A DNA stretch of 64,000 nt from a virus. Under the pieces are notes generated by a model, which was not told where the DNA came from, did not search any database, and saw only the letters and a list, made by a program, of their open reading frames with translations. Below, one piece after another: positions 8,347-48,943 of this stretch. The DNA lies in IMG/VR virus record IMGVR_UViG_3300017971_000287. One strand, given 5' to 3'. Each line of letters begins with the position of its first letter. Positions within the stretch are counted from its first letter, which is position 1. A program made the position numbers and the translations under genes.

Positions 8347-8801
8347 TGGACTGCGACATAAAACGACAAGGAACGCAATGGCTCCCTTGCCCACGCTGCG
8401 GATGGGTCTATTCGGGAAAATCCACAAAACCCCCCAGAAGGACGTGTCCAAAAGTGCCAGGAACAATACTTCACACACTGTTATTGTCCCGCTTAGGAAC
8501 AGACGTGGTTTCTGGCTGTGCTTGTAGGGCGTGGATCAGTCAGATGAACCGTTGGGGGCCTGATAGATGCCGAGACAACCTTATAAAGATCGTTAATGCG
8601 TTACTTGCAGAAGCTAAGCGGCGAGAGTGGAAATTAGACGGAAAACCGATTCTTTCTAGAATAGCTAAGTATGGAACAACCTTGCCGGGCGGGATAATCT
8701 TTGCGCGTAGCTGGGCACGTAAGCTAGTATTGGAAGCGATCAAAAGGAGCGAACAAAGTGAAGAACCCGATTTGGGCGTATGGCCTGCTGACCGTTCCTG
8801 A
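8346..8801 (+). CDS. Cys-rich protein (CPRC zinc-ribbon-like N-terminus)
   Basis: CPRCGW..., PGTILHTLL..., CACRAWISQMNRWGPDRC; last gene before the glycan cluster. Confidence 0.55.
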   Translation: MDCDIKRQGTQWLPCPRCGWVYSGKSTKPPRRTCPKVPGTILHTLLLSRLGTDVVSGCACRAWISQMNRWGPDRCRDNLIKIVNALLAEAKRREWKLDGKPILSRIAKYGTTLPGGIIFARSWARKLVLEAIKRSEQSEEPDLGVWPADRS

Positions 8802-13513: not shown

Positions 13514-13517
13514 CTTC

Positions 13518-14234: not shown

Positions 14235-14255
14235 CTCAACAAGCGATAGTGTTTT

Positions 14256-16728: not shown

Positions 16729-16729
16729 C

Positions 16730-18306: not shown

Positions 18307-18307
18307 C

Positions 18308-19108: not shown

Positions 19109-20013
19109 ACCGTGTCACAATGAGCCAATTCGGTAGGTGGGGACGGGCAGGAAATCAGTTCTTTCAGTACGCATTTCTAACGGAGTATGCACAACAGTAT
19201 GGCGCACAGTTAGAATTACCCGCTTGGGTAGGCACTCATCTGTTTGGTGCTTCCAATCCTTCTATTACAACGAAGCTGCCTGTATGGACAGAGCCAGGCA
19301 GCGGTCTTCAGCATCCTACTCCCCCAGAAGGTGACGAACTGGTTGGTAAAGACTTTCGAGGGTACGCCCAATACCACACAAGCTACTACAAGACACACCA
19401 AGACCAGATACGTTTGTTGTTTGCCCCTGTTCCAAAAGTAGCTGCAAGACTGCGCCCAGCAGAAGAACAATTACAGCAAGCGGGAGAAACAATAATTGGA
19501 ATCCATCTTCGCAGAGGAGACTATGGTAGAGGCATCTTTCCTATCATACCTACCGAATGGTATTTGAACTGGCTCTACAAAAATTGGAGCCGTTTCAAAA
19601 GGCCCGTCCTGTTCATTGCAACAGAGGCACTGTCACTAGTAGAAAAGTTCAGGGAGTTCAATCCTCAGACGGTAGAGACTCTTGGTATTGCTCTTGAAAA
19701 CAAACCGATGGCAGATTGTACGTATCTTTCTTACGATCTCAAAACGAAAGACAGTAGGGCTATGGACTGGTATCCTGACTTTCACTTGCTTTCTCTCTGT
19801 GACATCTTGCTAGGCCCTAGCAGTACGTTTAGCTTCTTTGCGGCTATGTTGAATCCAAGCCTCCAAGAATACTGGCGTGCTTCTCTTGCTATCGCCTATT
19901 GGCAAAGGACAGACCCGTGGGATGCGTACCCTCTAATGCGGGAGCACGTAAATGACTACCCGCACCTATCGTCGGTTAGGTCGTCTCACCGGCAAAATCC
20001 GTATTGGAGATAG
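19105..20013 (+). CDS. GT11-family (alpha-1,2-fucosyltransferase-like) glycosyltransferase
   Basis: GRAGNQFFQYAF, GIHLRRGDY (HxRRGD), FIATE, DFHLLSLCD, STFSFFAAML. Confidence 0.85.
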   Translation: MNRVTMSQFGRWGRAGNQFFQYAFLTEYAQQYGAQLELPAWVGTHLFGASNPSITTKLPVWTEPGSGLQHPTPPEGDELVGKDFRGYAQYHTSYYKTHQDQIRLLFAPVPKVAARLRPAEEQLQQAGETIIGIHLRRGDYGRGIFPIIPTEWYLNWLYKNWSRFKRPVLFIATEALSLVEKFREFNPQTVETLGIALENKPMADCTYLSYDLKTKDSRAMDWYPDFHLLSLCDILLGPSSTFSFFAAMLNPSLQEYWRASLAIAYWQRTDPWDAYPLMREHVNDYPHLSSVRSSHRQNPYWR

Positions 20014-31392: not shown

Positions 31393-31974
31393 GTGCTTTC
31401 TATGCGAAACAAACGAAACAAACCTCTGAAAAAGTATAGAGACCACAAAAGGCAGTGGGCTAATTGTAGCGAGTGTAAGCTTTGCCAATTTCGTTCTCAA
31501 ATTGTACTGTATAGAGGACGCCTTCCTTGCCAAGTATTGTTTGTTGGAGAAGCACCTGGAGTGTCTGAAAATCTTTTTGGTGTTCCTTTTTATGGTCCTG
31601 CTGGAAAACTGTTGGATAAAATTATTGCAAAGGCATGGGCAGGTTTGTCTGTCAGTTGGGGGTTTACAAACCTTGTTGCCTGTTTACCAAAGGAGAGTAA
31701 AGAGAAGGGTAAAGAGCCACCCTTATGGGCAATCCAAGCGTGTAAAAAACGCTTGCAGCAAATAGTTATGCTGGCTCAACCAAAAGGGGTTGTTTGTGTG
31801 GGCGCTTTGGCAGAAAAACATTTTCAACCACCGAAAGGGGCAAAGCATGCGTCAATAGTTCACCCAGCAGCTATCTTACGTGCAGACGTTTCACAAAAAG
31901 GATTAGCAGTACAACAAGCTGTTGGAACTGTTTTTGACTTAGCTCGCAGGTTAGGGATAACTGCTAAAGTGTAA
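31393..31974 (+). CDS. Family-4 uracil-DNA glycosylase (Fe-S type)
   Basis: CSECKLC, FVGEAPG, PFYGPAGKLLD, TNLVAC, HPAA. Confidence 0.9.
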   Translation: MLSMRNKRNKPLKKYRDHKRQWANCSECKLCQFRSQIVLYRGRLPCQVLFVGEAPGVSENLFGVPFYGPAGKLLDKIIAKAWAGLSVSWGFTNLVACLPKESKEKGKEPPLWAIQACKKRLQQIVMLAQPKGVVCVGALAEKHFQPPKGAKHASIVHPAAILRADVSQKGLAVQQAVGTVFDLARRLGITAKV

Positions 31975-35851: not shown

Positions 35852-36445
35852 ATGTCTTTACCAAGAAAGATAAGTAGAGCGTTGCGCAAGCAATCTAAAC
35901 TATCGCTGCGTCCTGAAATTCTGTTAACTCCAAACATTCCTCGTCCAATGCATGGAGTAAACCCCCGCACAATTATGGGTACTAGTTGGTGGAACCAGGA
36001 AAGACGGAAAGCATACAAAGCTTCATCGTATCGTTGTTTAGCTTGTGGAGTCTCTAAGTTTGATGCTTTATACCGGAAGTGGCTAGAGGCTCATGAGCTC
36101 TACAGTGTTGACTATCAAAAAGGCAGACTTGTCTACCTTGAAACAGTAGCTCTTTGCTACGCTTGTCATAACTACATTCATGATGGCAGACTACAAGCGT
36201 TGTTAGACACCCAGGAAATTACACACGAGAAGTACGTAAAAATCATACAGCACGGGAACCGTGTATTGCAGCAAGCTGGGTTGTCTAGACCCCCTCGACA
36301 CGTTAGGGAGGCAGACATTAGTGATATGTTGTTGAACGGGCTTGTCGCTCCGTGGAAAGATTGGAGACTAGTGTTCAAGGGTAAGTTGTATCCACCACGG
36401 TTCAAAACAGAAAAACAATGGCAAAAAGCGATGAGGAAAAGATGA
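35852..36445 (+). CDS. HNH endonuclease-like protein
   Basis: CLACG, LEAHE, ALCYACHNYIH; overlaps the polA start. Confidence 0.75.
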   Translation: MSLPRKISRALRKQSKLSLRPEILLTPNIPRPMHGVNPRTIMGTSWWNQERRKAYKASSYRCLACGVSKFDALYRKWLEAHELYSVDYQKGRLVYLETVALCYACHNYIHDGRLQALLDTQEITHEKYVKIIQHGNRVLQQAGLSRPPRHVREADISDMLLNGLVAPWKDWRLVFKGKLYPPRFKTEKQWQKAMRKR

Positions 36446-38475
36446 GAATTGCGCTTGACACTGAGACCACTGGATTGGATTTGTACCATGGAGACAAACC
36501 ATTCATGGTGCAGGTTTGTTTTGAAGACGGCAACCAACTGTGGTGGGAGTGGGATGTTGACCCTCTTACTAGAGAGCCCAAAGTCATAGAAGAGGAACTA
36601 AACGAGATACAAAGCACGTTGGATTCTGCTGATGAAATCGTTTTGCAGAATCCTAAGTTTGATTACTGCGCTTTGCGTACTGTGATGCCAAATTTGCGGT
36701 GGGATTGGGGTAAGGTAAAGGACACTCTGCTAGCAGGGCACTTGTTGGCTAGCAACGAGAGGCATGATCTCACTACTATGGCTTTGATCTATCTTGGAGT
36801 GGATGTTCAAAGCTATGAAGACAACGTGCGTAAGGCTGTACTAGCAGTTCGACGGTTCTGCATGGGACGGAATCCTAAGTATCCCGATTGGATGATAGCA
36901 AGAGGCGGCAATCCAAAGATGCCAAGCGCAAAAGAAAGTAGCTGGAAAAACGATATGTGGCTGCCCCGTGCTTACGCTCTAGAGAATAACCTGCCGAAGG
37001 GCCATGAGTATTGGAGCGTCACGGAAAAGTACGGCAATAACGACACAGAGACTACGCTTGCACTCTATGGGCGACAACTCAAGTTGCTTAGAGAAAAACG
37101 GCTAGTGCGTCTTTACCAAGAGAGGTTGAAGCTACCTGGTATTGTAGCAGCCATGGAGGATCAAGGTGTTACCTTCAGTCAAAAACGGGTAAAGCAGCGA
37201 CACAAACAATACCGGAAAGAGTCTGTTGACTACGGTAAGGTATGCAAGACCTTAGCAAGCAAAAAAGGGATAGAACTAACCTTACCAAAGTCAGGAAACA
37301 ACAAATCATTACTATTGGCAGTTGAAGCTTTACTGCCTGCTAAAGTGAATCTCCCTTTGACAAAAAAGGGCAATCCGTCTTTGTCGGCCGACACGATTGA
37401 AGAATTGTTGAGTACTCTAACAGAAACTAGTCCTGCTTCTAAGTTTTTAACGGCTCTAGTAGAGAAGCGCAAAAGGGATACTGCGGTGAGCTACTTAGAA
37501 GGGTACCAAAAATACCAACTACCATTACGGGTATTCAAGCGGGGCAAACGATTGAGATATGTTAATTGGTATGTACTACATCCCTCTTTGAATCCAACTG
37601 GGTCTCATACGTTGAGATGGAGCAGCAAACACCCTAATGAGCAAAATATCAGCAAAAAGGATGGCTTTAATCTCCGGTATTGCTTTGGACCTGCTCCAGG
37701 CCGTGAATGGTGGTCTATTGATGCTAAGAATCTAGAGTTGCGAATCCCAGCCTATGTTGCCCAAGAAACAGAACAAATCAATCTGTTTGAAAAGCCCGAT
37801 GAACCCCCTTACTACGGCAGTAACCACCTACTAGTGTTTGATATCCTTTGGACAGAAAAGCTAGGATTAGACACATCTGATCCAAAGTACCTACTGAAGG
37901 CCAAAAGTAAGTACAAGGCAACACACTACCAGTGGACAAAGAATGGTAATTTTGCCGTGCAGTATGGTGCAGTAGAAGAGAGCGGTACAGCTGACCGTAC
38001 TTACCACCAGAAGGGAGCACAGGCAAAAATTCAAAGACGGTTTGCTAAGTCACGTGTCCTAAATGAAAAGATGATTGCAGTCGCTGAACAGCGTGGCTAT
38101 GTAGAAACGTTGCCTGATAAAACAGTTGATCCGACAAGGGGATACCCTTTGTGGTGTAAGCGCACTAAGTGGGGACGAATAATGCCTACTACTCCGTTGA
38201 ACTATATGGTGCAAGGTACTGCGATGTGGTGGATGATGAAGGCTATGATTCGAGTGCAAGAATACCTAGATACTCTCAAAGGCTCCTACATGATTATGCA
38301 GGTACACGATGAGCTAGTCTTTGACTTTCCAAAAGCCAAGAAAAGAAACCTTCCGAAGATACGGAAGATAGCACAGTTAATGGAGCAAGGGGGAGAGGAT
38401 ATTGGGGTTCCTACTCCTGTAAGTATTGAGTACCATCCCGTGTCTTGGGATACGGGTGTTTCTGTCGTAACATAG
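36442..38475 (+). CDS. polA: Family A DNA polymerase with 3'-5' exonuclease domain
   Basis: ALDTETTGLD (Exo I), TLRWSSKHPNEQNI, SIDAKNLELRI (motif A), KNGNFAVQYG (motif B), VQGTA, QVHDELVF (motif C). Confidence 0.95.
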   Translation: MRIALDTETTGLDLYHGDKPFMVQVCFEDGNQLWWEWDVDPLTREPKVIEEELNEIQSTLDSADEIVLQNPKFDYCALRTVMPNLRWDWGKVKDTLLAGHLLASNERHDLTTMALIYLGVDVQSYEDNVRKAVLAVRRFCMGRNPKYPDWMIARGGNPKMPSAKESSWKNDMWLPRAYALENNLPKGHEYWSVTEKYGNNDTETTLALYGRQLKLLREKRLVRLYQERLKLPGIVAAMEDQGVTFSQKRVKQRHKQYRKESVDYGKVCKTLASKKGIELTLPKSGNNKSLLLAVEALLPAKVNLPLTKKGNPSLSADTIEELLSTLTETSPASKFLTALVEKRKRDTAVSYLEGYQKYQLPLRVFKRGKRLRYVNWYVLHPSLNPTGSHTLRWSSKHPNEQNISKKDGFNLRYCFGPAPGREWWSIDAKNLELRIPAYVAQETEQINLFEKPDEPPYYGSNHLLVFDILWTEKLGLDTSDPKYLLKAKSKYKATHYQWTKNGNFAVQYGAVEESGTADRTYHQKGAQAKIQRRFAKSRVLNEKMIAVAEQRGYVETLPDKTVDPTRGYPLWCKRTKWGRIMPTTPLNYMVQGTAMWWMMKAMIRVQEYLDTLKGSYMIMQVHDELVFDFPKAKKRNLPKIRKIAQLMEQGGEDIGVPTPVSIEYHPVSWDTGVSVVT

Positions 38476-38510: not shown

Positions 38511-39092
38511 GTGATGGCAACTAGAGACAAGTATGGTAATCTTACCGATGAAGTGTGTACAAAGAGGTTTAAGAAATGGATTGAGCATTTCAAGCCAGGT
38601 AGCTCAAAAAGAAAATATCCGCCCGGTAAAACACATGACTGGGTGTACTACAGCCACCATGTTCTCCTTCAGATACTAGCTGCCTTGGCAGACGAGCAAG
38701 ACCTAGTAGAGATTGATCGGGGTCTTCATGGTGGCACAAGACCGTCTTTCAAGTTGTCTTGGAACAGTAAAGTGTCAACTCTTATTCCTGTCTGGGCAGA
38801 AAAGATGAGGAAGGACCACCCGAATAATGGGCTTTGGGAAATGGCACAAAGAGACTATGACTTCTTCACGCAAAAGTTTCGCTGTTTTGTCTTGTTAGCT
38901 TATGGGCAGAGAGGGGAAACATTGGAGAGTAGGGTATCTGTGGTGGAAGGGTCTAATGGGCTTACTACAGACTATCTTAGGATTGCTCCGTTGGAATCCT
39001 GCCTTGTTGCTGCTCAATCCTCTCATGGTACTATCTGCTTTGAAGAGATTCCTCAGCCAACCTTTGATTTATACAAGAAACTCCTATTATGA
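38511..39092 (+). CDS. Hypothetical protein
   Basis: 193 aa, AGGAG SD. Confidence 0.65.
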   Translation: MMATRDKYGNLTDEVCTKRFKKWIEHFKPGSSKRKYPPGKTHDWVYYSHHVLLQILAALADEQDLVEIDRGLHGGTRPSFKLSWNSKVSTLIPVWAEKMRKDHPNNGLWEMAQRDYDFFTQKFRCFVLLAYGQRGETLESRVSVVEGSNGLTTDYLRIAPLESCLVAAQSSHGTICFEEIPQPTFDLYKKLLL

Positions 39093-39165
39093 CTCCGACT
39101 GAGAGATTCCTGTAAGTATTGAGTATCACCCCTCTAATTGGTCAGAGGGAATTTCAGTTTCTTAG
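39089..39165 (+). pseudogene. Fused gene stubs: 5' end of an aGPT-Pplase homolog joined to the 3' end of a polA homolog
   Basis: ATG ACT CCG ACT GAG AGA TTC CTG TAA (MTPTERFL*) vs MTPIDRFL at 39663; overlapping frame PVSIEYHPSNWSEGISVS* vs PolA end PVSIEYHPVSWDTGVSVVT*. Confidence 0.75.
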
Positions 39166-39181
39166 CTTTGGGAGAATTACT

Positions 39182-39676
39182 ATGGATCGTAACAGGTTAG
39201 GATTCAAAGAGAGACACAATTTAGCCAATTGGCTAAAAGCTCATTGGGAGATGATTGTAGAAAAAAGGTTGGTGCGAGAAGTAGTAGCAGCCCGTGCATC
39301 TGAGGATTTAGGAGTAAACTGTACAGAAAATAATTTATCCAGTGTGGTAAAGGAAATGGAAATGGAATGGCCTAAAGCAGCTACCAGAAAACGGACCACT
39401 GGACAAACCAAAGACCGTTACAAGTTTGTAGCAAGACAATTGTATATTACCCAAAAATACTTGTTGGCCCTTCTTTGTTATCTAAAGGATTATTTAGAGG
39501 AAGAAACACTGCATCAAGATATTCTGACAAAAGTTAAGCTTTTTGTACCTGTTGCAGATGAAAAAGGAAGACTATTGAACTCCGAAGCCTTAAAAGCTAT
39601 AGCTAATGGGCGAGATTGGCATGCCTCTGACTTTACACAGGAAGTTGAAGAAGATGAAGAAGATGACTCCAATTGA
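39182..39676 (+). CDS. Hypothetical protein with acidic C-terminus
   Basis: GGGAG SD before ATG 39182. Confidence 0.65.
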   Translation: MDRNRLGFKERHNLANWLKAHWEMIVEKRLVREVVAARASEDLGVNCTENNLSSVVKEMEMEWPKAATRKRTTGQTKDRYKFVARQLYITQKYLLALLCYLKDYLEEETLHQDILTKVKLFVPVADEKGRLLNSEALKAIANGRDWHASDFTQEVEEDEEDDSN

Positions 39677-40529
39677 TAGGTTTCTCTGGTGGATTAGAGA
39701 GCGACATAGCATCTACCTGAAAAAGGAAGCTGAAGAACCGAAGCCTTGGACAAAGGACAAGGTGCTACAACGCTACTTTTTCACCAATCCATACCGAGAA
39801 AATGACAAGGTCACAGTTTGGATACGAAAACACATCCGACTACCTTATGCTAAGCATCCTTGTCTGCCTTTTATGCTCTGCGTTGCTAGGCAGTTTAACT
39901 GGCCTGACACCCTACAAGAGTTGATAGATCGGAATGCTTGGCCTACTAAACGTTGGCGACCAACGTTAGTTGCTAAGGTACTAGATCAACGAAAGAAAAG
40001 AGGTTTGAAGGTTTATACAGGGGCTTATATGGTTCGGGCAGAGAGCAATCGAAATGCTGCTTGGTATCATTGGAGTAAAAACCTTTACATGGCTACAATT
40101 GTTCTTGGAAGAGTCTGGGACAAACGAGCCGAATTTGCAAAATGGTTACAGACAAATAGTATGGAAGTATCGACCCGGTGGTTGCAAGCACAGTATGGGT
40201 GGGGAGGATTTATGGCTTATGAGGTAGTATGCGATCTAAGACACACTAAGTACCTTAGAAAAGCACATGATGTAATGACTTGGGCCAACTTAGGTCCTGG
40301 TGCCCGCAGGGGTCTCAATCGAATCCATGGCAGAGAAGTGAAGCAGGGCCTGTCCCAAAAGCAGGGCTGTAAAGAAATGAGAGCACTACTGAGCGAAGCT
40401 CAATCTAGGTTGGGTGATCTTCCTTTAATGGAGATGAGAGAAATTGAACATAGTCTCTGTGAGTTTGACAAGTATGAAAGAGCAAGGTTAGGGGTAGGTA
40501 AAATGAAGAGAATGTACGCGGGCAAATGA
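39663..40529 (+). CDS. aGPT-Pplase1 / 5-hmdU DNA kinase helical-domain family protein (thymidine hypermodification)
   Basis: ERHSIY..K....PWTKD.VLQ.Y.FTNPYRENDKVT, FNWP, GGFMAYEVVCDL, GPGARRGL, EHSLCEFDKY. Confidence 0.85.
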   Translation: MTPIDRFLWWIRERHSIYLKKEAEEPKPWTKDKVLQRYFFTNPYRENDKVTVWIRKHIRLPYAKHPCLPFMLCVARQFNWPDTLQELIDRNAWPTKRWRPTLVAKVLDQRKKRGLKVYTGAYMVRAESNRNAAWYHWSKNLYMATIVLGRVWDKRAEFAKWLQTNSMEVSTRWLQAQYGWGGFMAYEVVCDLRHTKYLRKAHDVMTWANLGPGARRGLNRIHGREVKQGLSQKQGCKEMRALLSEAQSRLGDLPLMEMREIEHSLCEFDKYERARLGVGKMKRMYAGK

Positions 40530-40562
40530 CTCTTTGCAGTTAATGTGTTAAGAGGCTAAGAC

Positions 40563-41411
40563 ATGAAACTGTTCATTTATGTACCAACACGGGGAAGAAT
40601 CCTAGATCAAAAGTCTATGCGGTTTTTGCGATTAAAAGAATGTAAAGACCGTGTGGCATTTGTAGTTCCACAGTGTGAAGCCTTAGCATTCAAACGAAAG
40701 TACTCTTGGGCTAAAGTCAAAGTTGTGAAAGATGAATGGAAGATTGGAACAATCAGTCAGTACATTATTGAAAGTAAAGGTCGGTACAAGGTTTTGATTG
40801 ACGATGACTTTCAATTGCTTCGAAGACGGAACAAACTTAGTGTGTCTCAAAAAGGGGGGGTAGCTACTGATAAAGACGTTAGACTGCTGTTTGCTCGGGT
40901 AAAGTACTGGTTAAGAAAAGGTTTTGCTCACGGTGGGGTAAGTCTACGACAAACAAACCACTTTTGCAAGGATGCTTGGTACAAATTTAATAGTCGAGTG
41001 TCTGGGTTTATGTTTTTTGACTCACGGGTTGTGCGCCAAGAGGGAATAAGATTTGATGCCGTACAAGAGAGACAAGACTTTCACATGACACTATCGTTGC
41101 TAGAATTGGGTTACTCTAATGTAGTTGATTATGAGTTTGCAGTCGGTCAGTACATTCAGGGGACAAATGCTGCGGGCGGTTGCTCCCGATACCGAACACC
41201 AGTGTTTTTGTTGGAACAAGCAGAACGGTTAGCACAGCTGCACCCAAAGACGGTTAGAGTTGTTTTCAAGCAACCGAAAGTAGCTGAAGCTACAAAGTCT
41301 ATGTTGACGGACAAAGGCATACCCGATGTAAGGATACAATGGGTGAAATCGCTGGGGCTTCGTTCAGCAGAAAGAAAAGTAACAAAACCTTACCGCTGTG
41401 TGAGAGTGTGA
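40563..41411 (+). CDS. TET-associated-type (TAGT/GREB1-like) DNA glycosyltransferase 1
   Basis: YVPTRGR, VLIDDDF, QDFHMTLSLLELGY, AGGCSRYRT. Confidence 0.8.
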   Translation: MKLFIYVPTRGRILDQKSMRFLRLKECKDRVAFVVPQCEALAFKRKYSWAKVKVVKDEWKIGTISQYIIESKGRYKVLIDDDFQLLRRRNKLSVSQKGGVATDKDVRLLFARVKYWLRKGFAHGGVSLRQTNHFCKDAWYKFNSRVSGFMFFDSRVVRQEGIRFDAVQERQDFHMTLSLLELGYSNVVDYEFAVGQYIQGTNAAGGCSRYRTPVFLLEQAERLAQLHPKTVRVVFKQPKVAEATKSMLTDKGIPDVRIQWVKSLGLRSAERKVTKPYRCVRV

Positions 41412-41953
41412 TGTATTGGTTGATTGAACCTCATGCTGATGATGTGTTTCTTTCTTTACACCAGCACATAGTTGACCTTTGGAAAGATGTTTCAAAAACT
41501 ATTGTAACTGTATTTGCTACACAACAAAGAGTTAAAGAAGCACGGGAATACGCTTTGGCAGTTAAATGTCGACACTTCTGTCTAGGATTAGAAGAAGGGG
41601 GTGGCTTATCTCAAAAAGCAGGCTTTGTGCCTCCATTTGACGAGTGGAAGTTGCCTAGAAAAAGAGGGGATGTCCTCATCTTTCCTATTGGAATACAACA
41701 CCCAGACCATTTAGCAGTTGCGAAACGTGTGCCTACAATCGGAGTAGTTTGGCGGTATTTGGATACTCCTTACTACACAAAACAAAAGGTAGCCCAAGAG
41801 TTGATAGAAAAAACTCGGGGGCGTTGTATTCGATCAATAAGGTATGCCACTAGGCATAAATGGAAGCACGTTGAAAAGTTCAAAAGTCAAGGCAAGTTTT
41901 TCTTTTACAATCCTCCCAACACTTTACCTCGGATGGAGGTAGTCATGTCATGA
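41411..41953 (+). CDS. PIG-L/LmbE-family N-deacetylase
   Basis: IEPHADDVFLS (HxDD) and QHPDH motifs; start ATG 41411. Confidence 0.8.
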   Translation: MYWLIEPHADDVFLSLHQHIVDLWKDVSKTIVTVFATQQRVKEAREYALAVKCRHFCLGLEEGGGLSQKAGFVPPFDEWKLPRKRGDVLIFPIGIQHPDHLAVAKRVPTIGVVWRYLDTPYYTKQKVAQELIEKTRGRCIRSIRYATRHKWKHVEKFKSQGKFFFYNPPNTLPRMEVVMS

Positions 41954-42153
41954 ACCACAAAAGAGATGCTATTCCCGCTTGGAAGTACAAGGTAGGAAAA
42001 CAAACAGCATACAATCGTTGGTTTGAAGGAAAAGGTGCCCCCCTACAAAGTGACATATTTCAGAGGACACATGAGAGCAACCCAGTTATTAGTAGAAAGG
42101 CAATAACGTGTTGTATAAACAGCATTCTCCGTTTTCAGTACAAGTTGAGTTAG
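41950..42153 (+). CDS. Small hypothetical protein
   Basis: ATGA overlap with the upstream gene, 67 aa. Confidence 0.4.
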   Translation: MNHKRDAIPAWKYKVGKQTAYNRWFEGKGAPLQSDIFQRTHESNPVISRKAITCCINSILRFQYKLS

Positions 42154-43064
42154 TAGAGGGGTGTTCCCTGGCTTGCTCTTTTTGCGGAATCAATGGGATC
42201 AGAAAAGGTCCTGGAAACTTCAAGTATGCTCGGTTAGGAATGCTAAGTAGGGTGGCAGCAGAAATAGCAAGACTAAAATGGACGCCTCGCATTGAATTTG
42301 CTATGCATGGAGAACCAAGCTTGCATCCTAAACTGCTTCATTGTGTGCGTGTCTTTCGCAGAAGATTGCCTCATCTATCTTTGATGCTAACAAGTAATGG
42401 TGCAGGCTTTCGAGGGAAACAGGTAGAAAGGATAGTAGCATTACAAAGGGCGGGTCTAAACGTTCTTGGCCTAGATAACTATGACCATGATGGTTCCGTT
42501 CCAGGCATTGTTAGAATGCTGCACAAAAAACACCCTAGTGTGCCTGTCCGGTATTACCCTGAAGACAAAGCAGCATCAGTATATCGAAAAAGAAAACCAG
42601 ACTCGTTTGAAGTAGTCGTTTTGGCTGACATAAGAAAGCATGCTACCGGCACTCGTAAACTCGCGAATCATGCTGGACAAGCATTTCCACCGGACACAAG
42701 TAAGCAAAATCAAAGGTGTGCGCTCCCATTTCGGGACTTAGCAATCCGTTGGGATGGTAATGTTGCTATCTGTTGTGACGATTTTAGAGGAACGTACAAA
42801 ATAGCTAACGTGAAAGACATGCCGCTGGACGCTTTGTGGCAGCACCCTAGGTTTGTCGCTGCACGTAAGGCACTGTATCATCGACTCAGAGACTTCCTGC
42901 CTTGTGCGATCTGTAATGCTACCAGCATCCGCCCTGGTCTTTTGCCTGACCCTACTGGACAGGAGTCACTGCCTTTTCCATCGAGCAGGGATAACCAAGC
43001 CATGAAAGATGCTGTTGCAAACGGTCCTTATACAAAACCCGTTAAACGTCCTTGGGAGATGTAA
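42108..43064 (+). CDS. Radical SAM enzyme with SPASM/twitch domain (paralog 1)
   Basis: GCSLACSFC (CxxxCxxC), HGEPSLH, LTSNG; C-term RCALPF...CCDD...CAIC. Confidence 0.9.
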   Translation: MLYKQHSPFSVQVELVEGCSLACSFCGINGIRKGPGNFKYARLGMLSRVAAEIARLKWTPRIEFAMHGEPSLHPKLLHCVRVFRRRLPHLSLMLTSNGAGFRGKQVERIVALQRAGLNVLGLDNYDHDGSVPGIVRMLHKKHPSVPVRYYPEDKAASVYRKRKPDSFEVVVLADIRKHATGTRKLANHAGQAFPPDTSKQNQRCALPFRDLAIRWDGNVAICCDDFRGTYKIANVKDMPLDALWQHPRFVAARKALYHRLRDFLPCAICNATSIRPGLLPDPTGQESLPFPSSRDNQAMKDAVANGPYTKPVKRPWEM

Positions 43065-44027
43065 ATGTTCAAATTCCGTAAAGACAAACAACATGCTCCT
43101 TTCAACATTACTGTGGATGTCACTTCGGGGTGCTCTATTCGTTGCTCTTTCTGTGGTGTAAAGGGTGTTTACAGTAAAGCAGGGGTGTATGATCACATGA
43201 GCTTGAAGACGGGTAGACTTGTAGCACGCAAGTTAAATGAAGCAGGTTGGATTTGCAGAATAACTATTGGATGTTTTGGAGAACCCACTGAAAACCCGCA
43301 CTTGAAGGAGATTGTAAGAGCTATCCGAAAGGCTGCCCCTAAGCATTCAATAATGATGTTGAGTAACGGGTCTGGTCTAGTAAAACACGCACAGAAAAAG
43401 TTTGAAGAATTGCATAACGCGGGATTGAATGCTATTTGTATTGAAGACTATCGTAAGCAAGGGTTTCTTCAAAAGATACGAAAGCAAGGAGTGCAATTTG
43501 CGGGAAGATACCCAAACAACAAAAAGTTAAATCCGCAACAACGGTTCTCTGTCAATAAGCACTTAAACATTATCATCAACGATTTGAGGGACAACAGTGG
43601 TAGAGGGAGTAGTCATAGTCACATCAATAATCATTGCTGTTGCGGGGGTCCCCCTAATAATCGGGGCGTAGGTAAACGGTGCACTAGGCCTTTTCGTGAT
43701 TTTGTTATTCGTTGGAATGGCTTTGTGCCCGGTTGCTGTAATGATTGGAGGATGAAGTATGTGGTAGGTGACATTCGCAAACACACGTTTGAACAGTTGT
43801 GGCAGTCACAAGGATTTTATGCACTGCGTCAAAAAATGTATGCTGGTGAACGAGATTTTGGTCCTTGTAATGGGTGCGATTTAATTGGCACAAGAGTGGG
43901 CTTGCTGCCTGATCCAACAGGCCAAATGGAGATGGAACCCCCCAATTCATTAACGGAACGTGTGCTTCAACAGTGCATGAGGCATCCTGATATGACGCCT
44001 GTAAATTTAAGAGCATGGGAACAGTAA
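43065..44027 (+). CDS. Radical SAM enzyme with SPASM/twitch domain (paralog 2)
   Basis: GCSIRCSFC, FGEPTEN, LSNG; C-term RCTRPF...CCND...CNGC; shares GLLPDPTGQ and RxWE ends with paralog 1. Confidence 0.9.
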   Translation: MFKFRKDKQHAPFNITVDVTSGCSIRCSFCGVKGVYSKAGVYDHMSLKTGRLVARKLNEAGWICRITIGCFGEPTENPHLKEIVRAIRKAAPKHSIMMLSNGSGLVKHAQKKFEELHNAGLNAICIEDYRKQGFLQKIRKQGVQFAGRYPNNKKLNPQQRFSVNKHLNIIINDLRDNSGRGSSHSHINNHCCCGGPPNNRGVGKRCTRPFRDFVIRWNGFVPGCCNDWRMKYVVGDIRKHTFEQLWQSQGFYALRQKMYAGERDFGPCNGCDLIGTRVGLLPDPTGQMEMEPPNSLTERVLQQCMRHPDMTPVNLRAWEQ

Positions 44028-44028
44028 A

Positions 44029-44820
44029 ATGCAAATCTTTATACCAACTAGGGGTAGGATTAACAACCAAGTAACTTTTGAACGGTTCCACTTGGCTAAA
44101 AGTCTATACCCAGTAACGTTTATTGTGCCTGAAGAGGAGTATCACGGGTTTGTGTCCAAGTGGGGTACTCAAGCAGAAATTAGGATAGTACCTAGTGAGT
44201 GGCACATTGGTAACATCCATGATTACATTGCTTCCTATTGGGGGGATAAAAAGCATGTGGTCATTGACGACGATTGCAAGTTGTATCATTGCCCGTCTAA
44301 AAAGTCATGCCTGATTGTTCGGCATGCAAGACAGGCACGTAATATGTTTTTACAGTTAGAGAAGGCACTAGACACGTTCGCATACGCTGGGTTGACTCCT
44401 TCAGGTTACCACACGCTGAGCCCCTTTCCATCGTATGTCAACAGCCGCGTGTTGAACTTCCATGCTTATCGTCGCGACATCATCGTCAAAGAAGGGATCA
44501 AGTGGAGATTACCTACTAGTGGAGACCAGCATGCGGTTTTGACAACATTAGAACTTGGATACGCAGTACACCTAACAAATCGTTGGTGTGTCCAAGCTGC
44601 AAACTGGCAACCAGGCGGATGCACAGAGTATCGCACCGCAGAATTGGCGGATCAATCCTTTCAAACGTTGGCCAAACTACACTCTAAAGTCAAATTACGC
44701 AAGTCTACTACGGCTACTGACCAACAAACACTTGACGTGCGCGTTCAATGGAAGAAGTCCTACGGAATACGTAAGTATGATCGTAAACTCAAACGACCAG
44801 GGGTGGAAGTATGCGACTGA
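44029..44820 (+). CDS. TET-associated-type DNA glycosyltransferase 2
   Basis: FIPTRGR, VVIDDD, GDQHAVLTTLELGY, PGGCTEYRT. Confidence 0.8.
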   Translation: MQIFIPTRGRINNQVTFERFHLAKSLYPVTFIVPEEEYHGFVSKWGTQAEIRIVPSEWHIGNIHDYIASYWGDKKHVVIDDDCKLYHCPSKKSCLIVRHARQARNMFLQLEKALDTFAYAGLTPSGYHTLSPFPSYVNSRVLNFHAYRRDIIVKEGIKWRLPTSGDQHAVLTTLELGYAVHLTNRWCVQAANWQPGGCTEYRTAELADQSFQTLAKLHSKVKLRKSTTATDQQTLDVRVQWKKSYGIRKYDRKLKRPGVEVCD

Positions 44821-45413
44821 TACAAATCCAAGGATGTCGGCGGTCAGGAAACCATGCTGTAATTGAATGGATTTTTAGTTATTACAAGGGGGGCTGTTTA
44901 CACAACAACCTACCCCTGCCTTGGAATGGAAAGACTAGACCTAGCGAATACTTAATGTACGGAGACTATGAGAGGTTTCCTGAGATAGAGATACAATCTT
45001 GGGAGGACAAGGTGCTGAAAGATGCTGTGATTGTGTTGAGGTCTGCTTACAACTGTGTGGCTTCCCGTCTTAATGGTCCTAAGTATCTTCTGGAGTCAAC
45101 AAGAAAGATTTGCAGATTTACACCCGTCTGGAAAGCGCATGCCAAAATGGTATTAGCAGGCCACCCTCACATAGTCTATGATCACTGGCTAAACAATCCT
45201 AAACCAGCACATCAGCTACTACAGCTGCCAACCCCTTGCAAACGTCGCACTGCACGCAAACCAAGAAGAGGCAGTGGGTCTTCATTCAAACACAGTCCAT
45301 CTAATTACTTTGAAAGGTGGAAGCAAGTCGATCTGCCTACAGAGATTGTAGAAGACAAAGAGATAGCAGAACTTAACAAGGAGATATTTGGATGGTGGAT
45401 AGCATACAACTAG
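44811..45413 (+). CDS. Sulfotransferase-fold (P-loop) protein
   Basis: IQGCRRSGNHAVIEWI, VLRSAYNCVASR, YDHW, GSGSSF. Confidence 0.6.
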   Translation: MRLIQIQGCRRSGNHAVIEWIFSYYKGGCLHNNLPLPWNGKTRPSEYLMYGDYERFPEIEIQSWEDKVLKDAVIVLRSAYNCVASRLNGPKYLLESTRKICRFTPVWKAHAKMVLAGHPHIVYDHWLNNPKPAHQLLQLPTPCKRRTARKPRRGSGSSFKHSPSNYFERWKQVDLPTEIVEDKEIAELNKEIFGWWIAYN

Positions 45414-46081
45414 TTGACCGTCAGGTCGTGATAGACCATCCTTGCAATGGTCCTCATAAGTGTAAAGAGGGGCTATGGTATGGGCACCACAAGGGAAAAA
45501 GCATTTGGAAAGATGGAAAGGTGTTTCTTTCTTTAGAAGACACTCCCTGTGTAGACCACGTTGCTTCCCCTCACTACATTGACGGTCTTTTGTTCTACCA
45601 CGGAAGGGAGCCGGCTACAAGAAGGCAAATGACGTTTGTTTGGGATGGAGAAAGACATTATGGACCTGTTGCTCCTTTCTATTTGCGGCCGTGGAAAATA
45701 CGCCATCTTTGGTATGGGTTGTGTAAGTACCATGGGTGCTCTTTGTTTAGTGCTTGGGATCCAACAAAAGAATGGACCTTTCTTCGTGTGGTTATTCCGA
45801 AAGTACGACACGGATTTTATTACAGAGGGTGGGTCTACTATACGTTGATTGGAGACGCTCCAGAAAGGGTATTCCGTGCCAGGTTAAAGAAGCCAAATAA
45901 TACTGCACAAGAGGTACTTCGTCCTGTATATCCTTGGGAAGGTGCGGAAATGCCGCTCAAACCGAGTAAGAGCGGAGCAGTGACTCACCTAGTCAATCAG
46001 TTGCGCGACCCAATGGTGTATCAGGGAACGTTGTATTATGTTTACGGAGGGGAACAGGGCATTGCTCGTGTTGAGTTATAG
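45392..46081 (+). CDS. Beta-propeller glycoside hydrolase-like protein
   Basis: HVASPH..., C-term VLRPVYPWEG...G.V...VNQLRDP.V....LYYVYGGEQGIARVEL. Confidence 0.55.
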   Translation: MVDSIQLVDRQVVIDHPCNGPHKCKEGLWYGHHKGKSIWKDGKVFLSLEDTPCVDHVASPHYIDGLLFYHGREPATRRQMTFVWDGERHYGPVAPFYLRPWKIRHLWYGLCKYHGCSLFSAWDPTKEWTFLRVVIPKVRHGFYYRGWVYYTLIGDAPERVFRARLKKPNNTAQEVLRPVYPWEGAEMPLKPSKSGAVTHLVNQLRDPMVYQGTLYYVYGGEQGIARVEL

Positions 46082-46088
46082 GTGTAGA

Positions 46089-46122
46089 AAAAGCCTCCAG
46101 CGGTTTTTCGCAAGAGGCTTTT
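46089..46122. terminator. Probable bidirectional terminator between convergent genes
   Basis: AAAAGCCTC / GAGGCTTTT stem with A/T runs on both sides. Confidence 0.6.
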
Positions 46123-46139
46123 AGAAGAGAAGCACACGA

Positions 46140-46544
46140 TTAACAAAGCTTGGAACCTTCCTTTGTCAGATGGTAACCCTTGCCCTCTTGCAGTTTAACC
46201 CAGTCGATTAAACCGTTGGTGCGAAGAGTGGCGCAGTCGTCTACAGCTTTGTCTTTACCGCCAAACTTGTCCCAGACTGCTTCCCGTTGTATTACAGTCG
46301 TCGGGCGAGTGGCGTGCCTCTTTTTGAGGAACCTAAGAATGTTGAGTCTTGTCGGAGTCAAACGAATACTAGAACCAGAAGGAGTTTCTACCAATTCACC
46401 TTGGCTCTTGTTAGTTCTCTTGTCCGCCTTTCCTTTTTTACCCTTGACTGTCTTTTTGACAGTCTTTTTGACGACCTTCTTCTTAGCTGCCTTTTTGGGA
46501 GTTGCCTTCTTGTTGCTCTTCGTTGTCTTTTGTGCCTTTACCAT
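46140..46544 (-). CDS. Histone H1-like Lys-rich protein with C-terminal winged helix
   Basis: KKATPKKAAKKKVVKKTVKK N-terminus; TRLNILRFL...GLID..KGYHLTKEG; AAAGGAG SD before ATG 46544. Confidence 0.7.
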   Translation of the reverse strand: MVKAQKTTKSNKKATPKKAAKKKVVKKTVKKTVKGKKGKADKRTNKSQGELVETPSGSSIRLTPTRLNILRFLKKRHATRPTTVIQREAVWDKFGGKDKAVDDCATLRTNGLIDWVKLQEGKGYHLTKEGSKLC

Positions 46545-46691
46545 TTTGACGCTCCTTTGAAAGAAAGAAAATGTTAGAACCAAACAGTAGGTTCACTACT
46601 ACTACTATACGGGTTTGACGTGCAAAAGTAAACCCATTCTGGGAAGAAAAAGCAAAAATAGTTCTAAATCATTGCTACAAAAGGAGTTACA

Positions 46692-47243
46692 GTGTCTATA
46701 AACACGATTTTCCTGGATATGGACGACGTTTTGGCTGACTTTATTCGGGGTGCTTTGGAGATTCACGGGATTACCCGTGAAGAATTCATTGCTCAGCATG
46801 ATGGTAGTTGGTCAATCGTTTCGACTCTTGGATTATCAGAAGAGGAGTTTTGGCTGCCGATCATTGAAGCGGGTCAAAGCTTCTGGCAGGAATTGAAGTT
46901 GACAAAACATGCGACAGAGTTGATGCAATGGGTGACAGACCAAAAGTTGGATTACTACATTTTAACTTCTCCTGTCTCTACCCCTCAATGCTATGCTGGA
47001 AAGTACCTGTGGCTTCAAGAGTTTTTGGGTCCGGCTTTTAACTGTTACGTGCCTACCGTGCATAAGCATCTGTTAGCAAAACCTGGAACGTTGTTAATAG
47101 ACGATAGCCCGTCTATATGCAGAACGTTTAGAGACGGAGGAGGATTCGCTATTCAATATCCGACAAGGTATAATAGTCTTTCTTGGTTCTCCTGCCAACC
47201 TGTCAAGTTTGTTTCCCATATTGTTGACAGTTATACTGAGTAG
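46692..47243 (+). CDS. 5'(3')-deoxyribonucleotidase (NT5C, HAD superfamily)
   Basis: FLDMDDVLADF, ILTSP, GK..W, LLIDDSP; AAGGAG SD. Confidence 0.88.
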   Translation: MSINTIFLDMDDVLADFIRGALEIHGITREEFIAQHDGSWSIVSTLGLSEEEFWLPIIEAGQSFWQELKLTKHATELMQWVTDQKLDYYILTSPVSTPQCYAGKYLWLQEFLGPAFNCYVPTVHKHLLAKPGTLLIDDSPSICRTFRDGGGFAIQYPTRYNSLSWFSCQPVKFVSHIVDSYTE

Positions 47244-47267
47244 GTCTAAAACAAAAGGAGTAGTGTT

Positions 47268-48389
47268 ATGCAAACGCAATGGTCTTTTAACTCGGTTGAT
47301 GAGGCATTTGAAAATATGGTGAAGGTCTTTTTGACGTCAGAACAGGTACAACAGACAAACAGTAGAAACGGACCAGTACTAAGACTGCCTGGCCCGCAAC
47401 TGTTTGTGTATAAGCAACCCTGTAATCGTGTCTTGTTTAATCCTGCAAGAGACTGTAACCCGTTTTTTCATCTGTTTGAGTCTCTTTGGATGCTCGCAGG
47501 GTGTAACCGTGTAAAACCTCTATCATATTACAATTCTAACATCACAGACTACAGTGACGATGGAGAAACTTTTCATGGAGCTTATGGCTATCGTTGGCGT
47601 AGTCATTTTGGTGTAGACCAATTGAAACAGATCGAAGAAGAACTCTTACTAGATCGTGAGAGCCGTCGATGTGTTTTGCAAATTTGGTCCTCTACTGCTG
47701 ATTTAGGAATCCATATGATTACAAAAGACAAGCCTTGTAACACGCATGCTTATTTTGCCCTTGTAAACGACCATCTGGATCTGACTGTCTGTAACCGCAG
47801 CAACGACTTGGTTTGGGGAATGCTCGGTGCAAATTTTGTGCACATGACTTTGCTATTAGAATACATGGCCTGCTGTTTGAATGTGCCAATAGGACGGTAC
47901 TTCCACATTACAAACAACTTGCACGTTTATCTCAGCAATTGGAGGCCATCAGACTGGACAAACTGGAAACAGCATCGAACGCAGTATTCTCCTCCTATTC
48001 TTAATCACCCAATGGGACATGGTCCTCGCTTAGTTAGTGACCAGACTGTATTTGACGCAGAGTGTAAACGGTTTGTTGATTCGATTGACGGGACCTTCCA
48101 AGAGCCATTTCTACAAAACGTTGCCCAACCGATGATGGCAGCGTTTAGGGCACATAAGCAAAGAAAGTATTTTGGTGACCTGAACTGCTTTACCCTTATT
48201 GACCGGGTGCATGCCCCTGACTGGAGAGAGGCAGGTCGGCAGTGGCTTATGCGAAGAAAAGAGAATTGGATGGCTAAAAACAAAAAAGGTAAAGGGAAAA
48301 CCACTAACGTTTACCTTGCAAGGGAAGAGAAGAGACAGGCGGCGAATCCAGACGATTCTCAGTACAATGGTAGTGGAGATTCTGACTAA
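47268..48389 (+). CDS. Thymidylate synthase homolog, likely dUMP hydroxymethylase
   Basis: SRNG, NPFFHLFESLWMLAG, FHGAYGYRW, SRRCVLQIW, DKPCN, NRSNDLVWGMLGAN (Asn at the dUMP-specificity position). Confidence 0.8.
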   Translation: MQTQWSFNSVDEAFENMVKVFLTSEQVQQTNSRNGPVLRLPGPQLFVYKQPCNRVLFNPARDCNPFFHLFESLWMLAGCNRVKPLSYYNSNITDYSDDGETFHGAYGYRWRSHFGVDQLKQIEEELLLDRESRRCVLQIWSSTADLGIHMITKDKPCNTHAYFALVNDHLDLTVCNRSNDLVWGMLGANFVHMTLLLEYMACCLNVPIGRYFHITNNLHVYLSNWRPSDWTNWKQHRTQYSPPILNHPMGHGPRLVSDQTVFDAECKRFVDSIDGTFQEPFLQNVAQPMMAAFRAHKQRKYFGDLNCFTLIDRVHAPDWREAGRQWLMRRKENWMAKNKKGKGKTTNVYLAREEKRQAANPDDSQYNGSGDSD

Positions 48390-48943
48390 TGCCAAGACCA
48401 GTACTAACCAAATCTGACTTTGTATGTCGGTATGCCTTAGGCGAGTTTGGCAATGCTAGTCCTACGTGGAACACTTTTGAAGAGTGGACGGGTAGGAAAG
48501 TAGGTTCAGGTACGTTGTACCACATACGTAACCGAGTAAAGGGGGGAGCAACTTGGTACAACGTGCGTTCCTGTGACCTGAAAAACGTTTGGGAGTTTGC
48601 TTCCAAAAAGTGTGGGCAATGCAATTTGTATATCTCAGCTATGGCTCCTACCAAAAAGACAATCCTTCAAGGGGAGGTACAAGAAGGAGTGTGGGGACTG
48701 GAGTTGACGTACACAAGAGTCAAAAAACCCATGCGAGATGCTTTGCGAGAACAAAGTATCAGCACAAGAGGATTAGAAGCGAGTCTACTGCTAGGCGTTG
48801 CTATGAACGATCTTAGTGGAGACTGGCTGATGTACTTGCTAGAGATGTACCCTGAACACGTTGTTGAGTTTTCCGTGTATAGTGTGTGCTGGGGAACTGT
48901 ACCTGGACACAACACGGTTTTTTGGGAAGTTAGAAAGTACTGA
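48389..48943 (+). CDS. Hypothetical protein (possible ATP-grasp-like fold)
   Basis: 184 aa coupled to the ThyA homolog; VVEFS...VFWEVRKY end; fold is a guess. Confidence 0.55.
   Translation: MPRPVLTKSDFVCRYALGEFGNASPTWNTFEEWTGRKVGSGTLYHIRNRVKGGATWYNVRSCDLKNVWEFASKKCGQCNLYISAMAPTKKTILQGEVQEGVWGLELTYTRVKKPMRDALREQSISTRGLEASLLLGVAMNDLSGDWLMYLLEMYPEHVVEFSVYSVCWGTVPGHNTVFWEVRKY

Follow-up and report, generated by a model that had tools for sequence, protein, structure and literature searches.

What does a phage do to its thymidines when it carries a gene set for making 5-hydroxymethyldeoxyuridine (5-hmdU), glycosyltransferases (GTs) and radical S-adenosylmethionine (rSAM) enzymes, and no kinase of the known thymidine pathway? 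The question is raised by a gene cluster at 39.6–48.9 kb, on the plus strand, of a 64,000-nucleotide stretch of viral DNA (IMG/VR record IMGVR_UViG_3300017971_000287), hereafter called the window. Which restriction, CRISPR and glycosylase defences a phage can evade depends on how its DNA is hypermodified, and enzymes of such pathways have also served DNA labelling and sequencing. Known thymidine routes phosphorylate 5-hmdU and then transfer an amino acid or polyamine, and known sugar routes act mostly on cytosine. Here, a large group of uncultured marine and environmental phages links a deoxyuridine monophosphate (dUMP) hydroxymethylase, GTs and an rSAM family, without a kinase.

We think it rather likely that the cluster carries out DNA hypermodification at thymine positions, yielding a glycosylated 5-hmdU whose sugar is deacetylated, radically tailored and possibly sulfated. 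An earlier note on this DNA had proposed a multi-step sugar-decorated thymidine on 5-hmdU that fits no described base. That proposal is supported by the signature of the ThyA homolog, by the repeated linkage of GT, rSAM and HMUDK_hel genes, and by accessory families that act on sugars. Gene families were assigned by Pfam, PHROGs and NCBIfam scans of the cluster open reading frames (ORFs), and every family that the note had named was found in the cluster. The arrangement is not chance, because its core recurs in all 63 of the related loci that are fully flanked. Protection from restriction and CRISPR nucleases, also part of the earlier proposal, is assumed by analogy with other modified phages.

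In the pathway that we propose, the ThyA homolog would convert dUMP to 5-hydroxymethyl-dUMP before replication, a nucleotidase resembling mitochondrial deoxyribonucleotidase (mdN) would drain thymidine monophosphate (dTMP) and dUMP, keeping thymine out, and the phage polymerase PolA would incorporate 5-hmdU. After replication, the helix-hairpin-helix protein HMUDK_hel would bind or flip 5-hmdU, and TAGT1, a GT of the TET-associated type (TAGT), would move an N-acetylhexosamine, most likely N-acetylglucosamine (GlcNAc), onto the 5-hydroxymethyl group. An LmbE/PIG-L enzyme would strip the acetyl group to leave a hexosamine. Two Twitch rSAM enzymes like BtrN and SpeY would abstract hydrogen from sugar carbons, giving most probably a ketone or, alternatively, an epimer; TAGT2 would add a second sugar; and a sulfotransferase-like protein with a propeller partner would add sulfate, O- or N-linked. 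The order among the deacetylase, rSAM, TAGT2 and sulfotransferase steps is left unset. From sequence, the pre-replication steps are strongly supported; the post-replication steps are suggested by family membership and conserved linkage.

The base made before replication

Residues that separate dTMP synthases, dUMP and deoxycytidine monophosphate (dCMP) hydroxymethylases, and 5-hydroxy-dCMP (5hodCMP) synthases have been described (PMC13326640). Asn at E. coli position 177 marks use of uracil, a retained Asp169 marks an enzyme that is not a 5hodCMP synthase, and an acidic residue replacing L143 marks addition of a hydroxymethyl rather than a methyl group. We aligned the window protein (47268–48389, plus strand; PF00303 E 1e-18) with E. 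coli ThyA, SPO1 gp29, which is annotated as a dUMP hydroxymethylase, and the SP10, ViI-like, M6-like and PhiJL001 enzymes. C157, R177 and S178, equivalent to the catalytic C146 and to the Arg-Ser pair R166 and S167 of E. coli, are invariant in the alignment. The motifs KDxPCN and NRSNDLxWGxxGAN align, and the window protein has N189 at position 177 and D180 at Asp169. Its KDKPC motif places an Asp at −3 from the catalytic Cys, where E. coli has Leu143, an equivalence that hinges on the placement of a three-residue indel. All three features are common to the 5-hmdU phages aligned.

Consistent with these residues, the best phage matches in tblastn are to known 5-hmdU producers, that is, SPO1 gp29 and the enzymes of M6, ViI and SP10 (M6-like 41% identity, SPO1 gp29 37% with E 2e-35, SP10 37%). 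The best PDB match is the CMP hydroxymethylase MilA, but MilA has Asp at the specificity position and the window protein does not. The assignment as a dUMP hydroxymethylase, already made in the earlier note, and of 5-hmdU as the base is thus strongly supported by the uracil-specific signature. As candidate identities, a dCMP hydroxymethylase and a 5hodCMP synthase were both ruled out by the specificity residues (Asn177, Asp169).

Just upstream lies an NT5C/mdN-type pyrimidine 5'(3')-deoxyribonucleotidase (46692–47243, plus strand). Its PDB match to human mdN (E 2.4e-8) aligns the motifs DMDxVLADF, TSP and LIDD. Motif I of the haloacid dehalogenase (HAD) fold is intact, DMDDV aligning with DMDGV of mdN, so the NT5C call stands despite a Pfam score under the cut-off. 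In classical hydroxymethyluracil phages a nucleotidase serves thymine exclusion, and the window enzyme fits this role by analogy. Most related loci carry an HD/YfbR-like 5'-deoxynucleotidase beside ThyA in place of NT5C. The polymerase predicted to use the modified nucleotide is a family A enzyme with a 3'-5' exonuclease (36418–38475, plus strand; PF00476 E 1.8e-28, PF01612).

In the same replication module, a member of the uracil-DNA glycosylase (UDG) superfamily is encoded at 31393–31974 on the plus strand (PF03167 E 1.5e-18). SPO1-type hydroxymethyluracil phages carry a UDG domain on PolA (PMC10201439).

The recurrent core and its glycosyltransferases

An alignment-based scan located the rSAM family on at least 121 IMG/VR contigs, and about ten close relatives of the second rSAM protein, rSAM2, are present in a word-indexed protein collection. 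We annotated 86 related loci, numbered here with the prefix L, by iterative profile searches seeded with the window proteins. Sixty-three of them have at least 2.5 kb on either side of the rSAM gene and are counted as fully flanked. The recurring order is HMUDK_hel, GT, rSAM, ThyA, in some cases an HD gene, and PolA. A GT and a ThyA homolog are each present in 63 of the 63 fully flanked loci and HMUDK_hel in 60. The GT is of TAGT type in 53 (in 12 of them alongside a GT-B-like protein) and GT-B-like only in 10; where TAGT was not detected, a GT-B-like protein (Glyco_trans_1_2) occupies the same slot. PolA was found in 66 of the 86 loci. One relative, L015, has a cytidylyltransferase fused to a mannose-6-phosphate isomerase cupin inside the module (L015:6428-7456). 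This gene appears to be of sugar-nucleotide type and points to sugar supply in that phage.

The enzymes of the known thymidine pathway were sought in the same sequences. The 5-hmdU DNA kinase (PF18748) gave no tblastn match in the window with the SN1, SP10 and SFP10 kinases as queries, and no small ORF with a Walker A motif was found there; the window spans all but about 4.7 kb of the phage contig. PF18748 was likewise absent from all five relatives that are 100% complete and from PhiJL001, in a search in which SN1, SP10 and SFP10 scored as positive controls. The SN1 P-loop kinase as query returned nothing in the 86 loci. The SN1 clade-2 aGPT-Pplase, an amino-acid:DNA transferase (PF18724), returned nothing in the window or the 86 loci, and neither the window nor the related loci gave a match to the SN1 pyridoxal phosphate (PLP) enzyme or to the M6-type rSAM (SN1 gene 022, a homolog of gp53). 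Judged from these loci, uncultured phages widely share a kinase-free core made up of a dUMP hydroxymethylase, HMUDK_hel, a single GT and a single Twitch rSAM. We suggest that this minimal core is the ancestral system and that the window phage is an elaborated member, with two GT and rSAM modules, a deacetylase and a sulfotransferase pair.

The module also gives a context in which clade-1 aGPT-Pplase can be studied free of a confounding kinase or clade-2 enzyme. HMUDK_hel is the current Pfam name of this clade, a helix-hairpin-helix, glycosylase-like family. The window protein (39606–40529, plus strand, its real start probably at 39621–39663) matches PF18723 over its full length (E 2.9e-51; 174.9 bits with a cut-off of 25; profile positions 4–275 of 281) and shares 47–48% identity with the gp55-type protein found in M6-like phages. 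The aGPT-Pplase1-type protein of the earlier note is therefore present, but with neither kinase nor clade-2 transferase at hand, the known aGPT-Pplase chemistry, in which a phosphorylated intermediate is formed and an amino acid then transferred, has no way to proceed. All 36 HMUDK_hel sequences compared have Cys285 and Glu286 unchanged, and the motif suggests that the protein is catalytic. In clade 2, a Cys and its neighbouring Glu are essential for activity (PMC8989533). An hhalign comparison of HMUDK_hel with one clade-2 sequence gave a weak match of 18 columns (E 0.057) that places the Cys on the clade-2 motif; the HMUDK_hel profile searched against the PDB matched no clade-2 structure. 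We favour a role common to kinase- and GT-linked systems, namely recognition or flipping of 5-hmdU, because the HMUDK_hel of kinase-linked SN1 nests among GT-linked ones in the tree and because M6 gp55 is dispensable in vitro.

TAGT1 (40563–41411, plus strand) and TAGT2 (44029–44820, plus strand) are GT-A enzymes with the DXD motif in the form DDD. They share 32% identity and match phrog_842 at E 4e-22 and E 2e-24, respectively, in agreement with the two TAGT-type GTs first noticed. For PF20691 the E-values are 4e-5 and 2.9e-9, TAGT2 reaching 37.6 bits, above the cut-off of 27.5. TAGT1 keeps the invariants of the TET-associated GT family (R12, DDD 80–82, D172, GG 205–206, R211 and W260). TAGT2 keeps DDD 80–82, D166, GG and R202, but differs at several otherwise conserved positions. 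No Tet_JBP match was obtained among the cluster ORFs scanned, so the usual TET/JBP partner of TAGT is missing from them, as the earlier note had said; the ThyA homolog would supply the hydroxymethyl group instead. From these families we infer that the GTs glycosylate 5-hmdU in DNA.

Several variations on the core were seen among the relatives. In 19 loci an NrdR-like zinc-ribbon protein lies between HMUDK_hel and TAGT (e.g. L034:8903-9208), one locus has two tandem HMUDK_hel paralogs (L016:7489-9218), and another has a 580-aa ORF that contains the rSAM and is possibly a fusion (L057:3324-5063). The invariant Cys-Glu pair of HMUDK_hel sits within an IEHxLCExDKYER motif in kinase-linked and GT-linked phages alike.

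Candidate sugar-tailoring enzymes and the competing readings

The two radical SAM/SPASM enzymes of the earlier note, rSAM1 (42108–43064) and rSAM2 (43065–44027), are adjacent on the plus strand and both match PF13186 and PF04055. For rSAM1 the values are E 5e-11 for PF13186 and E 1.8e-6 for PF04055, the latter at 28.7 bits, just under the cut-off of 29.5. It is 47–49% identical to its relatives and falls inside the main clade of the rSAM tree. rSAM2, a diverged paralog with 32% identity to rSAM1, forms a long branch beside the L006/L009 lineage. The main clade has the gene order GT then rSAM, the L006/L009 lineage rSAM then GT, and each window rSAM has the order typical of its own clade. A recent tandem duplication as the source of the pair was excluded by the tree. 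From the clade split, the clade gene orders and the divergence of the TAGTs, the cluster reads as two diverged modules back to back, TAGT1-deacetylase-rSAM1 and rSAM2-TAGT2-sulfotransferase-like-propeller.

An AlphaFold (AF2) model of rSAM2 built on 47 family members reached a mean predicted local distance difference test score of 92.6. In the Foldseek ranking BtrN came out far ahead (E 6.5e-14; template-modelling (TM) score by target 0.79–0.85), followed by SpeY (5e-6) and then SkfB, anSME, DesII and others. BtrN is also the best sequence match, at an identity of only 16–17%. The family has a CX3CX2C motif (C23, C27, C30) and conserved C206, C224, C225, C268 and C271; by analogy with BtrN, four of these five C-terminal cysteines could ligate one auxiliary cluster. 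C225, also invariant, is without an equivalent in BtrN and could act as a hydrogen donor, which leaves the epimerase reading open. By the same analogy, a two-electron oxidation that turns a secondary alcohol of the sugar into a ketone would be the likeliest outcome and epimerisation the alternative. rSAM2 had no match in tblastn against 50,697 phage records at that sensitivity, and a single-sequence rSAM2 scan of IMG/VR found none, whereas the alignment-based scan succeeded.

Between TAGT1 and rSAM1 lies a 180-aa protein (41411–41953, plus strand) of the LmbE/PIG-L de-N-acetylase family. The start at 41339 given earlier is not upheld, 41411 being most likely instead. The PIG-L call itself is borne out by motifs, profile and homologs. 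EPHxDD and HPDH, the zinc and catalytic motifs, are invariant in the family (E6, H8, D10, D11, H97, P98, H100), nine homologs carry PF02585, and the family profile matches Dbv21 (3.8e-5), teicoplanin Orf2 and BshB (9e-4) in the PDB, all LmbE-fold deacetylases of GlcNAc conjugates. An ESM Atlas structure matches a PIG-L cluster at TM 0.81. The protein's own Pfam match is only E 0.65, far under the cut-off; the single sequence had no match in the PDB, and tblastn against the 50,697 phage records gave none at that sensitivity. To our knowledge, all characterised LmbE-family enzymes deacetylate GlcNAc conjugates. Because of this and of the PDB profile matches, the first sugar would most likely be an N-acetylhexosamine, GlcNAc.

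PIG-L homologs occur in two further related settings. In L098 the order is HMUDK_hel-TAGT-PIG-L. In L097 (6186-9748) a homolog lies near a Tet_JBP gene, with one unannotated 472-aa gene between them and an unannotated 272-aa gene on the far side of the homolog. The subfamily therefore appears to travel also with dioxygenase-type DNA modification clusters.

Two more candidate tailoring genes follow TAGT2 on the plus strand. The 200-aa sulfotransferase-like protein (44811–45413) matches sulfotransferase clusters in the ESM Atlas, by features at 0.95–0.97 and by structure at TM 0.6–0.8, so that the earlier call holds at the level of fold and not at that of sequence. RRSGxHA and RxxYNxxxSR, which we take to resemble the 5'-phosphosulfate-binding (5'-PSB) and 3'-phosphate-binding (3'-PB) motifs for 3'-phosphoadenosine 5'-phosphosulfate (PAPS), are invariant in this protein and in its homologs from L011 and L056, whose genes belong to the modules there and are flanked by GT and rSAM. 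The next gene (45392–46081; 229 aa) encodes a five-bladed beta-propeller of GH43/GH130/GH32-like type (Atlas TM 0.7–0.8), the propeller-hydrolase-like gene of the note, and has 432 representative homologs. Of ten homologs scanned, five have an N-terminal PF03567 (Sulfotransfer_2) domain, at about 490–510 aa, and one, of 614 aa, has PF13469 (Sulfotransfer_3); others gave weak GH43 signals. Because propeller homologs are fused to sulfotransferase domains, the adjacent 200-aa and 229-aa genes look like a split form of a recurrent sulfotransferase-propeller enzyme. A complex prediction for the two scored 0.00, which is evidence neither way.

From the GlcNAc-type deacetylase and the sulfotransferase pair one would expect DNA that bears amino sugars and possibly also anionic sulfate, and the cluster thereby offers candidate enzymes that would edit glycans on duplex DNA. 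More tentatively, and with fairly low confidence, we suggest that virion DNA bears a sulfated, de-N-acetylated amino sugar or disaccharide on 5-hydroxymethyluracil, deacetylated and then sulfated much as heparan sulfate is, with sugar carbons oxidised or epimerised by Twitch rSAMs acting directly on the DNA-bound glycan. If true, the sulfated nucleobase would be the first of its kind, as would an rSAM enzyme that tailors sugars on DNA, and the kinase-free core would be a third major thymidine hypermodification route in environmental phages.

Several points weigh against a tailored glycoside on 5-hmdU. The identity of the sugar, the rSAM reaction and sulfation are inferred from enzyme families. 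TAGT1 scores 24 bits for PF20691, below the 27.5 cut-off, and NT5C 22.2 bits for PF06941 (E 1.4e-4), under the 24.8 cut-off. The sulfotransferase-like protein gave no meaningful Pfam or PDB sequence match, either as a single sequence or as a seven-sequence profile. A dedicated kinase for hydroxymethyl-dUMP was not identified, nor, among the cluster ORFs scanned, was an aminotransferase or reductase that would use the keto-sugar product. The phage is known from metagenomic contigs alone, without an isolate. In addition, the Cys-Glu pair of HMUDK_hel resembles the clade-2 catalytic pair, and the protein may be an enzyme at the base rather than a passive presenter.

This last point leads to a different chemistry, centred on the base, which we find unlikely though it is the main rival. 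HMUDK_hel would be an active clade-1 group transferase in which the Cys attacks C6, the Glu serves as acid and the group on the 5-methylene is displaced. A glycosyl, keto-glycosyl or sulfate would be the kinase-independent leaving group, and the rSAM would then rearrange the base or form a C-C or C-N bond at it, as M6 gp53 does, so that the end product would be something other than a simple O-glycoside. The invariance of Cys285-Glu286 and the weak alignment of the Cys with the Cys-containing motif of clade 2, where that Cys and a neighbouring Glu are essential, fit such a mechanism, as does the near-universal presence of HMUDK_hel in the module while the kinase is absent, but the nesting of SN1 HMUDK_hel among GT-linked ones suggests a shared role, and M6 gp55 can be dispensed with in vitro. 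A sulfotransferase-fold protein could replace the kinase as the activating enzyme; however, the gene occurs in only three lineages and so cannot be a general activator, and glycosides make poor leaving groups. The rSAM, moreover, is similar to BtrN and SpeY, which are dehydrogenases of sugars and cyclitols, and the M6-type rSAM has no counterpart in these loci.

It is also possible, if improbable, that the product is a simple glycosyl-5-hmdU like base J and that the rSAM, deacetylase, sulfotransferase and propeller serve other tasks, such as nucleotide-sugar supply or the modification of proteins or small molecules, or none. In PhiJL001 and L098, HMUDK_hel, TAGT and ThyA occur with no rSAM beside them, which argues that the GT system works as its own unit, and at 8.7–20 kb the phage encodes a large glycan gene set apart from the cluster. 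Yet every one of the 63 fully flanked loci has a GT and a ThyA homolog near its rSAM gene. In the cluster, the genes for the PIG-L, sulfotransferase-like and rSAM proteins are placed between the TAGTs or right behind them, most with overlapping or abutting frames, and PIG-L relatives occur in both TAGT and Tet_JBP contexts. A target other than 5-hmdU, whether cytosine (as glycosides of 5-hydroxymethylcytosine (5-hmC) or 5-hydroxycytosine) or something other than DNA (virion or host glycan), we consider very improbable. Enzymes of the TAGT family are known chiefly for acting on 5-hmC, some ThyA homologs produce 5-hydroxymethyl-dCMP or 5hodCMP (PMC13326640), and MilA is the best PDB match of the window enzyme. 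But the window enzyme has Asn and not Asp at the specificity position and Asp rather than Asn at 169, and among phage proteins it is closest to dUMP hydroxymethylases. So far HMUDK_hel is known from 5-hmdU systems alone, and the genes stand in the replication module beside PolA, away from the virion genes. A tailored glycoside on 5-hmdU is thus the reading that we retain.

Known systems and neighbouring genes

The cluster belongs to the known 5-hydroxymethylpyrimidine-based DNA hypermodification of phages, but it is missing two hallmarks of the kinase-dependent thymidine pathway as well as the dioxygenase of TAGT clusters. With the pathway of M6, ViI, phiW-14, SP10 and PaMx11 (Lee et al. 2018, 2021; PMC5889632, PMC8989533) it shares the dUMP hydroxymethylase subfamily (about 41% to M6-likes), HMUDK_hel (47–48% identity), the place beside PolA and a Mesyanzhinovviridae-like lineage. 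The M6-type pathway has a PF18748 kinase, a PF18724 transferase and a PLP or flavin adenine dinucleotide (FAD) enzyme, whereas GTs and Twitch rSAMs are found here instead. Among rSAM enzymes, M6 gp53 is described as the first to be validated in DNA modification (PMC11472151). It is an isomerase likened to a DNA-repair rSAM; its SN1 homolog is without a counterpart here, and the rSAM family of the window is different from that of gp53.

With TAGT clusters acting on 5-hmC (bioRxiv 2023.12.21.572611), trypanosome base J and the glucosylated 5-hydroxymethylcytosine of T4, the cluster has in common a DXD-bearing GT-A enzyme whose expected target is a 5-hydroxymethylpyrimidine in DNA. Glycans known on 5-hmC are mono-, di- and trisaccharides that include N-acetylhexosamine (bioRxiv 2023.12.21.572611). 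In TAGT clusters a dioxygenase acts on DNA, whereas here a ThyA homolog would act on dUMP and the target would be derived from uracil. Pbunaviruses F8 and 14-1 with sugar-derived thymidines (PMC12191111) and RB69 and DLP3 with arabinosyl-5-hydroxycytosine (PMC13326640) are likewise of sugar type and start from a ThyA/ThyX-family enzyme, but have other precursor chemistry and gene sets.

The Twitch rSAM dehydrogenases BtrN (butirosin) and SpeY (spectinomycin) have, like the window enzymes, CX3CX2C and one C-terminal set of cysteines for an auxiliary cluster. They act on a free aminocyclitol, whereas the substrate here would be a sugar tethered to duplex DNA; the low identity to BtrN and the extra C225 are further differences. 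Aminoglycoside biosynthesis (BtrM/BtrD) likewise combines a GT, a PIG-L deacetylase and tailoring, and the order GT, GlcNAc deacetylase, radical tailoring in the cluster mirrors the processing of 2'-N-acetylparomamine.

In the open literature we found no paper on a module of TAGT or GT-B, Twitch rSAM, HMUDK_hel and ThyA; an earlier computational mention is possible. No deacetylase or sulfotransferase described in DNA glycosylation was found there, and searchable papers held no description of an rSAM, LmbE deacetylase or sulfotransferase as part of a TAGT cluster. Those parts of the text of PMC12191111 and PMC13326640 that could be searched do not mention the combination of TAGT, Twitch rSAM and HMUDK_hel.

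The window encodes small and large terminase, portal, MuF and tail proteins and a replication module with PolA, and is thus a phage genome. The sequence was found in one sediment and one seawater metagenome, on contigs of up to 68.7 kb, and megablast of the cluster against the 50,697 deposited phage records gave no match. The HMUDK_hel and ThyA proteins are 41–48% identical to those of M6/YuA-like Pseudomonas phages and 33–38% to those of PhiJL001. The phage is therefore a distant marine Mesyanzhinovviridae-like siphophage, kin of M6, YuA and PhiJL001.

The plus-strand order is PolA, two ORFs without a family, HMUDK_hel, TAGT1, the 180-aa protein, a 67-aa ORF, rSAM1, rSAM2, TAGT2 and the 200-aa and 229-aa proteins. 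After a minus-strand gene it resumes with NT5C, the ThyA homolog, a 184-aa protein, a primase-helicase and the small terminase. A promoter and terminator scan of the cluster gave the same counts as in shuffled sequence. The 67-aa ORF (41950–42153, plus strand) had no family match in Pfam scans and may not be a genuine gene; its only counterpart is in L008, the same phage from another sample. The two ORFs between PolA and HMUDK_hel (38511–39676, plus strand; 193 and 185 aa), without a family match, are likewise found only in this phage (L008). The 184-aa protein that ends the interval (48389–48943, plus strand), which the earlier note had not named, has a minimal ATP-grasp-like fold by structure comparison, with middling scores; its family profile had no sequence match in the PDB. 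It is possibly a kinase or ligase.

The run of plus-strand genes is broken between the DNA-modifying genes and the NT5C-ThyA pair by a minus-strand gene (46140–46583). Its product, seen from the ORF translation, has a very Lys-rich N-terminal tail and a winged-helix-like domain (weak HTH_20, E 0.19) and may be a DNA-binding or regulatory protein. The gene was also called in L008, and L004, L005 and L007 too have minus-strand genes just after the rSAM.

The other glycan gene set, at 8758–20013 on the plus strand, follows the virion genes. It includes a sulfotransferase-GT25 fusion (10124–11545), a nucleoside diphosphate (NDP)-sugar epimerase/dehydratase (11503–12441), FkbM and Methyltransf_24 methyltransferases, and GT8, GT2 and GT11-like genes. 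This set may serve to decorate virions, or it may provide the DNA pathway with unusual NDP-sugars. Together, the glycan set and the cluster give the phage two sulfotransferase-type genes.

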